From UHGV virus genome UHGV-0021275: a stretch of 58,445 nt of DNA, one strand, 5' to 3'. The translations under genes and the position numbers were made by a program. The DNA comes from a virus. Each line of letters begins with the position of its first letter. Position 1 is the stretch's first letter. Of this stretch, positions 34,205 to 34,832 are shown piece by piece. The notes beneath the pieces are model-generated. The model was not told the DNA's origin and made no database searches. It worked only from the letters and a program-made list of their open reading frames with translations.

Positions 34205-34832
34205 AGACTGCGCATTGCGCAGTTAAAATTTTGTGCACAGCATATCAATAACTTAGCTCAGCATACCTAACTACGGAACAGGCACGACCACCGGGGCAGA
34301 CTGCGCACACAGTGCGCATTGCGCAGATTTGTAAATCCCGGTAAGCCGTTTTTGCTCAAGCCGTGCTCAAGGCCGAAAAACGTTTATTAGTTGAGCTATT
34401 GTCAGGAAGTGTAAGCATCAGGATTTAACAAATGGACCGGCGGGACCAGTGATGAAAATAAAATTGTTTTGGAATCAGCTGGTTATGTAGCAACGCTCGT
34501 TGGCCCCGGTCCGGCAGTAGCGCGGCGGCACAGGTCGCGCAGGCCCGAACGTAAAGGGGGTGGGGGGCTTTGGACGCGCCACTTCGACACCCCCCTCGCT
34601 CTACTCTATAGTATTGCTCGCGACACTTTTCGTTTTTGTAGAATTTTCATGCTGCGCATAATGCGTAGTGCGCATGGCTATTTGTTTCAGGCCTGATTAT
34701 CGCAGGACGTAACTACTGCGCAATGCGCAGATACCCACTTGTTAGATCATAACGCGGTAGAACTGGCGCGCATTGCGCGGCACCGTGGTCGATAAATAGT
34801 CCCAACCAGCAATTAACGCGCGATGCGCGCCA
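34205..34832. promoter_or_regulatory. Cluster of five GCGCAWTGCGC palindromes (candidate operators)
   Basis: ctgcgcattgcgcag (~34208), gtgcgcattgcgcag (~34312), ctgcgcaatgcgcag (~34716), gcgcgcattgcgcgg (~34767), gcgcgatgcgcgc (~34817). Approximate positions. Confidence 0.5.

Follow-up and report, generated by a model that had tools for sequence, protein, structure and literature searches.

The window described here is the whole of the viral genome UHGV-0021275 (58,445 bp), in which a short palindrome, GCGYAWTRCGC, occurs 20 times, in the non-coding control region between two divergent gene arms and in the arms themselves. An open reading frame (ORF) for a 2306-residue protein leaves the end of the window and resumes in frame at position 2 (56488-58445 joined to 1-4963), and the homolog of this ORF in a relative runs uninterrupted across the junction point. 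The window is therefore a complete circular element. Its late genes lie on the plus strand, from 35580 across the junction to about 7600, and encode the small and large terminase, the portal, a presumed capsid protein, an SU10-type adaptor, the 2306-residue polyvalent virion protein with its LPD38 (large polyvalent protein) and YkuD L,D-transpeptidase domains, and lysis proteins. ORF 43152-44279 is presumed to be the major capsid gene by gene order alone, without a named family match. The early genes occupy the minus strand from about 33850 down to 7700 and include those for ArdA, a ParB-type protein, an exonuclease, a family A DNA polymerase, a PD-(D/E)XK nuclease, an SNF2-type helicase, a DUF927-type primase-helicase and a HigBA toxin-antitoxin pair. 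Neither an integrase nor ParA was found among the scanned ORFs of the element, which looks like a plasmid prophage or phage-plasmid.

The nearest relatives are extrachromosomal contigs of 58-61 kb from several E. coli isolates, one Shiga-toxigenic strain among them. The circular 60,552-bp E. coli plasmid pSTEC648_2 (CP061838.1) is syntenic with the window, with protein identities of 55-95%. Identity to any deposited phage reaches at best 33.5% for the terminase and 26% for the portal. Megablast against phages and complete E. coli genomes gave no match, a scan of IMG/VR for the composite site described below returned three matches, all unrelated, and a literature search for the palindrome sequence or for pSTEC648_2 yielded nothing relevant. 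The family to which the element belongs is one of 55-69 kb podovirus-like phages and phage-plasmids without a cultured or described close relative. Related loci are cited below by L numbers. The control region and the cluster of sites within it are composed as follows.

33850-35580: non-coding control region between the divergent early (minus strand) and late (plus strand) arms, as given by the ORF layout
34198-34222: cluster site 1, TGCGCA, 5 bp and the 13-mer TGCGCATTGCGCA, with the 11-mer at 34210-34220
34243-34255, plus strand: consensus for integration host factor (IHF), TATCAATAACTTA (WATCAANNNNTTR), between cluster sites 1 and 2
34302-34326: cluster site 2, TGCGCA, 5 bp and TGCGCATTGCGCA, with the 11-mer at 34314-34324
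34653-34674: degenerate pair TGCGCAtaaTGCGTAgTGCGCA, two half-site hexamers whose spacing is non-canonical; the L013 counterpart is a full GCGCATTGCGC
34718-34728: cluster site 3, cTGCGCAATGCGCAg
34768-34778: cluster site 4, CGCGCATTGCGCG, 50 bp from site 3
34818-34828: cluster site 5, with the variant centre GAT (GCGCGATGCGC), 50 bp from site 4

The late arm carries these sites:

35494-35504: GCGTAATGCGC, 86 bp upstream of the first late gene (35580)
36728-36738: site 3 nt past the stop of gene 35580-36725, with a half-site at 36756
37077-37087: site within the small conserved ORF 36851-37141; L013 has a site at equal offset
39424-39434: site within the large terminase gene at offset 1100, codons A-R-N-A-L; equal offset in L006, L013 and pSTEC648_2
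40524-40534: site within the portal gene, S-R-N-A-Q
42021-42031: site 16 nt past the stop of gene 41712-42005; equal place in L013
44288-44298: site 9 nt past the stop of the presumed major capsid gene, a placement common to L006-L011, L013 and pSTEC648_2
45235-45245: GCGTATTACGC, within gene 44738-45724
45881-45891: GCGCATTACGC, within gene 45747-46694 at offset 134, identical in pSTEC648_2
50425-50435: GCGCATTACGC, within gene 49510-50781; the pSTEC648_2 copy has centre A (H-to-Q) and retains the motif
54843-54853: site within gene 54664-55074 at offset 179, equal in pSTEC648_2
58254-58264: site within the gene of the 2306-residue polyvalent virion protein
5001-5011: site 38 nt past the stop of that giant gene, at codon 14 of ORF 4960-5376; equal offset in pSTEC648_2

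The early arm has three:

16196-16206: site within ORF 16142-16648, just upstream of the helicase gene; conserved in pSTEC648_2
16423-16433: site in the same ORF, 227 bp from that at 16196
22062-22072: site near the 5' end of a gene for a double helix-turn-helix (HTH) protein, 0.9 kb upstream of parB; absent from pSTEC648_2

In its strict form, GCGCAWTGCGC, the palindrome is present in nine exact copies (5001, 34210, 34314, 34718, 34768, 36728, 37077, 40524 and 54843), where dinucleotide-preserving shuffles give an expectation of 0.11 and none of 100 shuffles reached nine. This enumeration agrees with an earlier sequence-only reading of the window, according to which such an 11-mer is expected well under once in 58 kb. 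The related GCGTAATGCGC has seven copies (0.06 expected), on the plus strand at 35494, 39424, 42021, 44288 and 58254, close to where that reading had placed them (~35487, ~39421, ~42020, ~44288 and ~58256), and on the minus strand at 45881 and 50425. In relatives, position 4 of the palindrome toggles between C and T and position 8 between G and A, so that the proper pattern is GCGYAWTRCGC. This degenerate pattern brings in 16196, 16423, 22062 and 45235, and its 20 window sites compare with 0.34 expected under a third-order Markov model (maximum of 2 in 200 simulations). In pSTEC648_2 there are 22 such sites against 0.42 expected, with a distribution bias like that of the window. Four of the 20 exact sites of the window fall in the control region (34210-34778), which has in addition the variant at 34818; of the others, 13 belong to the late arm, that at 35494 included, and three to the early arm. 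For arms of 30.5 and 26.1 kb, the 13:3 split has a binomial p of about 0.02.

The copies reported before at ~37075 and ~54845 were located as exact GCGCAWTGCGC at 37077 and 54843, and those at 5001 and 40524 and on the minus strand at 45881 and 50425 are new to the list. Five palindromes had been counted within ~630 bp of the regulatory region: four of them (34210, 34314, 34718 and 34768) are exact, the fifth (34818) is variant-centred. A pair of copies at ~36727 and ~36757 had been described as flanking gene 35580-36725. The former is a full site at 36728, the latter only the half-site TGCGCAATGGGGCA, and both lie downstream of that gene.

A symmetrised logo built from 73 distinct sites confines the information to 13 bp, Y-GCGYA-W-TRCGC-R, with exact dyad symmetry and no conservation past position ±7. 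Its commonest form is TGCGYAWTRCGCA. Among TGCGCA-type hexamers less than 40 bp apart a spacing of 7 bp is dominant (12 pairs), and a spacing of 11 bp occurs twice, both times in the control region. With respect to positions 4 and 8, the half-sites of the window pair as C-G in nine cases, T-G in six, C-A in three and T-A in two, where 2.1 T-A pairs are expected if the halves are independent; in pSTEC648_2 the corresponding numbers are seven, five, six and four, with 4.1 T-A pairs expected. Since GCGCA and GCGTA halves combine independently and compensated pairs are not in excess, these figures argue for a duplex site bound by a dimer and not for a hairpin. Across relatives, neither T-G nor C-A variants consistently favour one strand, and C-A copies are conserved. 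On this evidence the palindrome is very probably a double-stranded DNA site for a dimeric sequence-specific protein, most likely one that the element itself encodes.

The copies within genes appear at corresponding places in relatives. L006-L011, L013 and L015 carry the palindrome at homologous positions, among them offset 1100 of the terminase gene and offset about 710 of the portal gene. In the nine in-gene sites common to the window and pSTEC648_2, 93 of 99 nt are identical, compared with a background of 77%, and at synonymous third positions within these sites the proportion is 28 of 31 against 1081 of 1999 (54%) elsewhere (Fisher p = 3e-5). All six differences between the two elements hit degenerate Y, R or W positions; one of them is a central A/T swap that exchanges His for Gln and preserves the motif. 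The outgroups L014 and L012 encode the terminase peptide ARN(A/S)L via other codons (GCA AGA AAT AGT), without the motif, and in the portal the SRNAQ of the motif clade is replaced by SQNAQ in the outgroups, which again have no motif. A repeated R-N-A tripeptide, named in the sequence-only reading as a possible trivial cause of the copies, does not account for them: six of the 11 R-N-A tripeptides in the proteome carry the motif, the remainder use other codons, and the terminase outgroups keep the peptide and not the motif. Synonymous identity, outgroup codons and R-N-A codon counts together lead to the conclusion that the in-gene sites are selected as DNA, and chance or a codon artefact is ruled out by the shuffles, the Markov simulations, the R-N-A codon counts and the outgroup codons. 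In relatives with at most 75% portal identity (portal-anchored IMG/VR loci) the palindrome is absent from the late arms. The sites are real, symmetric, under selection and specific to one clade, and at the in-gene copies regulatory DNA appears to override codon choice and, in places, amino-acid sequence.

Four of the 13 late-arm sites (36728, 42021, 44288 and 5001) lie within 40 nt past a stop codon, a class of position that accounts for about 5% of the arm. Relaxed coding constraint alone may explain this placement.

Besides the site cluster, the 1.7-kb control region holds an AT-rich stretch, phased TGCTCA/TGAGCA hexamer repeats and a conserved GC-rich block; the equivalent 2.4 kb carry no annotation in pSTEC648_2 and L006-L011. 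Cluster sites 1 and 2 are composite, each made up of an accessory TGCGCA hexamer, 5 bp and the 13-mer, and they flank a perfect IHF consensus that lies between them in the window, L013, L006-L011 and pSTEC648_2 alike. Site 1 is retained in L013; the L006-L011/pSTEC group has kept its 13-mer. In the window and L013 the two sites stand 104 bp apart; in the pSTEC group it is 83 bp, and the 21 bp by which these distances differ amount to two helical turns. Some 400 bp beyond sites 1 and 2, past the GC-rich block, similarity drops in the alignments and the sites alone persist as conserved islands; site 5 is followed by a terminator-like hairpin at 34836-34855. The sequence-only reading had seen here what looked like operators for a dimeric regulator at the early/late switch, and a dimeric-protein site concentrated at the early/late divergence is supported by the perfect 13-bp dyad, the independent halves, the conserved islands and the IHF-flanking pair.

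A second repeat family extends over 33683-34369, with TGAGCA/TGCTCA hexamers (also TGCTACA) at 11-bp spacing and in both orientations around an AT-rich palindromic stretch at 33987-34030. In the pSTEC648_2 lineage TGCTACA and TACTCG units take the place of the TGCTCA/TGAGCA hexamers. These repeats look like replication-initiator iterons or operators for a second regulator. The GC-rich block at 34480-34625 (GGGGGTGGGGGGCTTTGGAC...CACCCCCCTC) shows hardly any change between the window and L013, and it can still be recognised in L006-L011, L028 and even L086; it could represent a structured RNA or some other cis element. A promoter-like match, TCGACA-17-TATAGT, lies within it at 34584-34612.

Two early proteins come into question as binders of the palindrome:

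20206-21141, minus strand: ParB/Spo0J/Noc-type protein of 311 residues, the candidate binder
21364-22128, minus strand: double-HTH protein of 254 residues, the rival candidate binder

Judged by its sequence, the protein encoded at 20206-21141 is a genuine member of the ParB/Spo0J/Noc family, with an N-terminal ParB/Srx domain of CTPase fold, which includes the GxxRxxA box, and a central ParB-type HTH. The alignment with Spo0J (1vz0) covers residues 53-192 (E = 3e-16), the TIGR00180 score of 64.4 bits exceeds the cut-off of 58.45, and PHROG 1033 matches as well; Pfam HTH_ParB reaches 39.2 bits (cut-off 22.6), and Pfam ParB_N, with 22.4 bits, stays under its threshold of 26.3. Noc, too, ranks with the best matches of the protein (7nfu, E = 1.3e-11; TIGR04285, E = 8.5e-15, far below the trusted cut-off). 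The HTH reads GRSEGDVANHLLLAQ and the arginine box GEHRVRAA. No scanned ORF matches the ParA family, and none is annotated as ParA in pSTEC648_2; Walker A motifs are confined to the primase-helicase, the terminase and one small ORF, and the ParA-binding motif [LFI]G[KR]G[LFI] is absent from the ParB-type protein. With neither a ParA-type ATPase nor a ParA-binding motif, the protein is an orphan ParB. Orphan ParBs on mobile elements are a recognised and common class (PMC12704722).

This ParA-less protein, which was not among the three HTH ORFs named as binders in the sequence-only reading, ranks first in our analysis. Its recognition helix, SEG(D/T)VANHLLLA, is retained in outgroup orthologs of 43-48% identity, and the available control regions of these outgroups, L016 and L028 (same contig as L109), contain one full GCGCAWTGCGC each, together with 4-5 partial sites with a GCAWTGC core per kb, where 0.12 are expected. 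As a full explanation of the sites, binding by the ParB-type protein with a KorB- or Noc-like mode of action is put forward tentatively, as the best candidate and still somewhat more apt to be wrong than right. Which protein binds and what the binding does we infer by analogy. The control-region cluster would serve as the nucleation point, with one composite site on each side of an IHF bend, in phase with each other, and a further two to three sites at a distance of 400-600 bp; about 16 single sites, mostly within virion and late genes and held there by selection on the DNA, would be the stations elsewhere. The ParB-type protein would load at the sites and then spread or slide, as KorB, Noc and BisD do. 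The outcome could be that the 30-kb late arm is kept silent in the plasmid-prophage state, that the plasmid is organised or segregated, or both.

The closest model is KorB, which recognises the operator TTTAGC-G-GCTAAA and acts in long-range silencing as a CTP-dependent sliding clamp (PMC11790492). KorB is likewise a ParB-family HTH protein, its operator is a 13-bp, 6+1+6 dyad with half-site centres 7 bp apart, the geometry found here, and the ~60-kb IncP-1 plasmid RK2 has 12 sites, some at promoters and some far from any. On the other hand, KorB has as partners the ParA homolog IncC and the co-repressor KorA, neither of which was found in the present element; the site sequence is unrelated, and here most copies lie within phage structural genes and the arginine box is GEHRVR. 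Noc of Bacillus subtilis resembles the candidate as a ParA-independent ParB-type protein on many dispersed palindromes, often within genes. It differs in that it tethers the chromosome to the membrane and blocks cell division, a role of which there is no sign here. The Noc-binding site is an even palindrome of 14-16 bp. BisD of ICEclc is a ParB-like CTP-binding clamp that loads at in-gene palindromes, spreads over 50 kb and controls promoters (PMC12409273); unlike the present case it uses only two bisS sites and activates via an extra domain and the partner BisC. For SopB of phage N15 four separate inverted-repeat centromere sites, IR1-4, have been described instead of one tandem centromere (PMC7205306). 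N15, too, is a plasmid prophage with a ParB-type protein and separate inverted repeats, but it has SopA (ParA), four sites only, an unrelated site sequence (GTGCGACCNNGGTCGCAC) and another phage type. The N15 IR sites are dispersed across the genome, phage gene regions included. Among species-representative genomes, ParB homologs were encountered in Collimonas elements only; these have a different recognition helix and no related palindrome.

The link between the sites and the ParB-type protein is circumstantial, and several observations speak against it. Since ParB is family-wide and the dispersed copies occur in one tight clade, ParB alone fails to explain the expansion of the sites; the 254-residue double-HTH protein is present in pSTEC648_2, and its distribution matches the clade with dispersed sites. 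No copy adjoins parB, the nearest being 0.9 kb off and not conserved. Histidine replaces the first arginine of the GERRxR box, which makes CTP-dependent clamping uncertain. The control-region sites drift among close relatives, with centres ACT or AGT and one copy disrupted. The cognate proteins of lineages with other palindromes were not recovered in a DNA-polymerase-anchored IMG/VR scan, which was swamped by marine phages of 30% identity. Furthermore, short dispersed palindromes arise in phages for other reasons, as exemplified by the 25 copies of TAACGTTA in phage JH01.

A serious rival, in keeping with some of these observations though rather unlikely, is that the sites are operators for the clade-specific 254-residue protein or another small HTH regulator. 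The cluster would then control the divergent early and late promoters and the in-gene copies would be roadblocks to leaky late transcription, similar to the stoperators of mycobacteriophage L5, with ParB binding something else or cooperating with the 254-residue protein as KorB does with KorA. Homologs of the protein are absent from L016-L018 and L108-L109, outgroup loci that cover 10 kb to either side of ParB; both of its HTHs (Pfam HTH_23 and HTH_24) are well conserved between the window and pSTEC648_2, whose motif is identical, one site (22062) lies in the 5' end of its own gene, and no CI-type repressor was found elsewhere among the scanned ORFs of the element. However, full and partial palindromes exist already in the control regions of lineages without the 254-residue protein, and a chain bearing two different HTHs, an arrangement known from transposases and small terminases, has no obvious fit to a compact 13-bp dyad. 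The comparison with stoperators is likewise imperfect. In L5 and other Cluster A phages about 20-30 copies of a 13-bp repressor site are spread, besides the true operators, along a temperate phage genome of ~50 kb and block elongation; these are asymmetric, oriented with transcription and mostly placed in short intergenic gaps, and the repressor is a small HTH protein and not ParB. The present sites share the length and the spread along a temperate phage genome, but they are symmetric and mostly within genes. An Xre-like protein of 91 residues was also considered and rejected as the binder, as its recognition helix is not conserved in lineages that retain the palindrome. Quite improbable is a role of the control-region cluster as a pac site or replication origin for the small terminase or the DUF927-type primase-helicase, with the dispersed copies being secondary. 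This reading draws on the palindromic TGCGCA hexamer arrays on both sides of the IHF consensus, the adjoining AT-rich stretch and the large non-coding region. The pac site of P1 consists of palindromic hexamers and is reported to need IHF, and the octamers of P4 ori/crr provide a precedent for an origin. Yet neither function needs about 16 selected in-gene copies up to 29 kb off. The TGCTCA direct repeats at 11-bp spacing fit iterons better; these repeats and the primase-helicase (54% identity) differ between the window and pSTEC648_2, the palindrome being unchanged, and the small terminase gene has no copy inside or adjoining it.

Hairpins in RNA or single-stranded DNA, be they terminators, stems that stabilise or process mRNA, protein-binding RNA hairpins or N4-like promoters, are very improbable. 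For perfect copies the predicted structure is indeed a 6-bp stem closed by a 3-nt loop (-9.1 kcal/mol), four late-arm copies follow a stop codon within 40 nt, a giant virion protein exists, and a terminator-like hairpin, with a T run behind it, has one copy as its stem in L006 and L013. Over all copies, however, predicted RNA stems range from -9.1 to -2.7 kcal/mol, and the conserved copy at 45881 (-2.7) folds no better than shuffled sequence. Positions 4 and 8 vary independently, without compensatory change, mismatched C-A copies are conserved, no strand bias is apparent and no T run follows any of the window copies. The N4-like variant with a virion RNA polymerase was discarded, the 2306-residue protein having LPD38 and YkuD only and no polymerase signal. 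The suggestion in the sequence-only reading that the dispersed copies are late promoters likewise finds no support: most of them lie in ORFs at conserved positions, with no -10-like element at a fixed distance, a promoter scan stayed at shuffle level (9 found, 7.9 expected), and the common -10-like hexamer downstream of the copies that would be a trait of late activators of the P1 Lpa or P2 Ogr type is lacking. Its other suggestion, modification or recognition sites, extended here to targets of a modification, restriction or nicking enzyme, is hardly credible. The palindrome contains two TGCGCA (FspI-type) hexamers, and it changes most often at one fixed cytosine, from C to T, which the decay of methyl-cytosine would yield; GCGC-associated nicks are known from phage T5. 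But the scanned ORFs of the window and the annotation of pSTEC648_2 revealed no methyltransferase, restriction enzyme or HNH nickase, restriction targets are normally avoided and the motif is here enriched 60-fold, a symmetric site offers a nicking enzyme no choice of strand, and the central A/T swap is a motif-preserving transversion that indicates selection and not decay.

Related lineages possess palindromes of their own:

L086: CAAGTSACTTG (5+1+5), five copies at 3123, 3627, 13417, 15846 and 19052
L049: CAAGTSACTTG, three copies
L065, L067, L069 and L070: GCATAWWTATGC, pairs in the control region
L088: GTGACANNNTGTCAC, three copies
L090: GAAGCTTAANNTTAAGCTTC, three copies

Of the five copies in L086, one belongs to the divergent control region, a second is some 0.5 kb distant and three are in late genes. 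Such lineage-specific palindromes would conform to the pattern shown by immunity or incompatibility determinants. The unrelated Escherichia phage ECOO78 (L204), taken as an independent check, has a 37%-identical orphan ParB and six copies of ACAATSATTGT (10516, 13786, 18120, 20336, 23458 and 33605), one of them 76 bp upstream of its parB; in 60 simulated genomes no palindrome family exceeded four copies. In Alteromonas phage JH01 (L206) a dyad lies 45 bp upstream of parB. Klebsiella phage ZCKP8, which has a ParB homolog, contains no convincing dispersed palindrome, so that the association of palindromes with ParB does not hold for all other phages. The TAACGTTA repeated in JH01 is an 8-bp palindrome in a genome of 46.5 kb, and words related to it, GTAACGTTAC and AACGTTAT, recur in L012 and L021.

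A more far-reaching version of the ParB proposal, distinctly unlikely as it stands, is that an orphan ParB-CTPase clamp, and not a CI-type repressor, acts as the master silencer and couples plasmid maintenance to the lysis-lysogeny decision. The clamp would load at about 20 parS-like palindromes, embedded by evolution in virion-gene coding sequence, and coat or patrol the 30-kb late arm without ParA, and the palindromes of related lineages would represent their own immunity or incompatibility specificities. The palindrome set in any case offers a testable handle on how 30 kb of virion genes stay quiet or how the element stays inherited. It also bears the possibility of a natural function for the partner-less ParB proteins common in phages, many lytic Klebsiella, Salmonella and E. 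coli phages included.

Some further features of the element concern its translation signals and its accessory genes. ATAATATTAT, with ten exact copies (3225, 6307, 17364, 27193, 30845, 35478, 37687, 39390, 42196 and 53702), was considered as a partner element of the palindrome and dismissed: it is a family-wide ribosome-binding-site spacer, Shine-Dalgarno-N2-TAATATT-ATG, unrelated to the GCGC motif. An example of this translation-initiation spacer is ggaggcaTAATATTATGg, and it is abundant in distant relatives as well (13 copies of TAATATTA in L016). Compared with the pSTEC648_2-type relatives, the window has two extra ORFs at 34861-36725 (205 residues on the minus and 381 on the plus strand), neither with a family match, which separate the control region from the conserved first late gene of 96 residues. 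An Rfam AgrB antisense small RNA is matched at 7595-7680 on the minus strand (48.1 bits, gathering score 40), between the converging ends of the late and early arms and beside the HigBA module. This module is 97-99% identical to its counterpart in pSTEC648_2, compared with about 75% for the remainder of the element.

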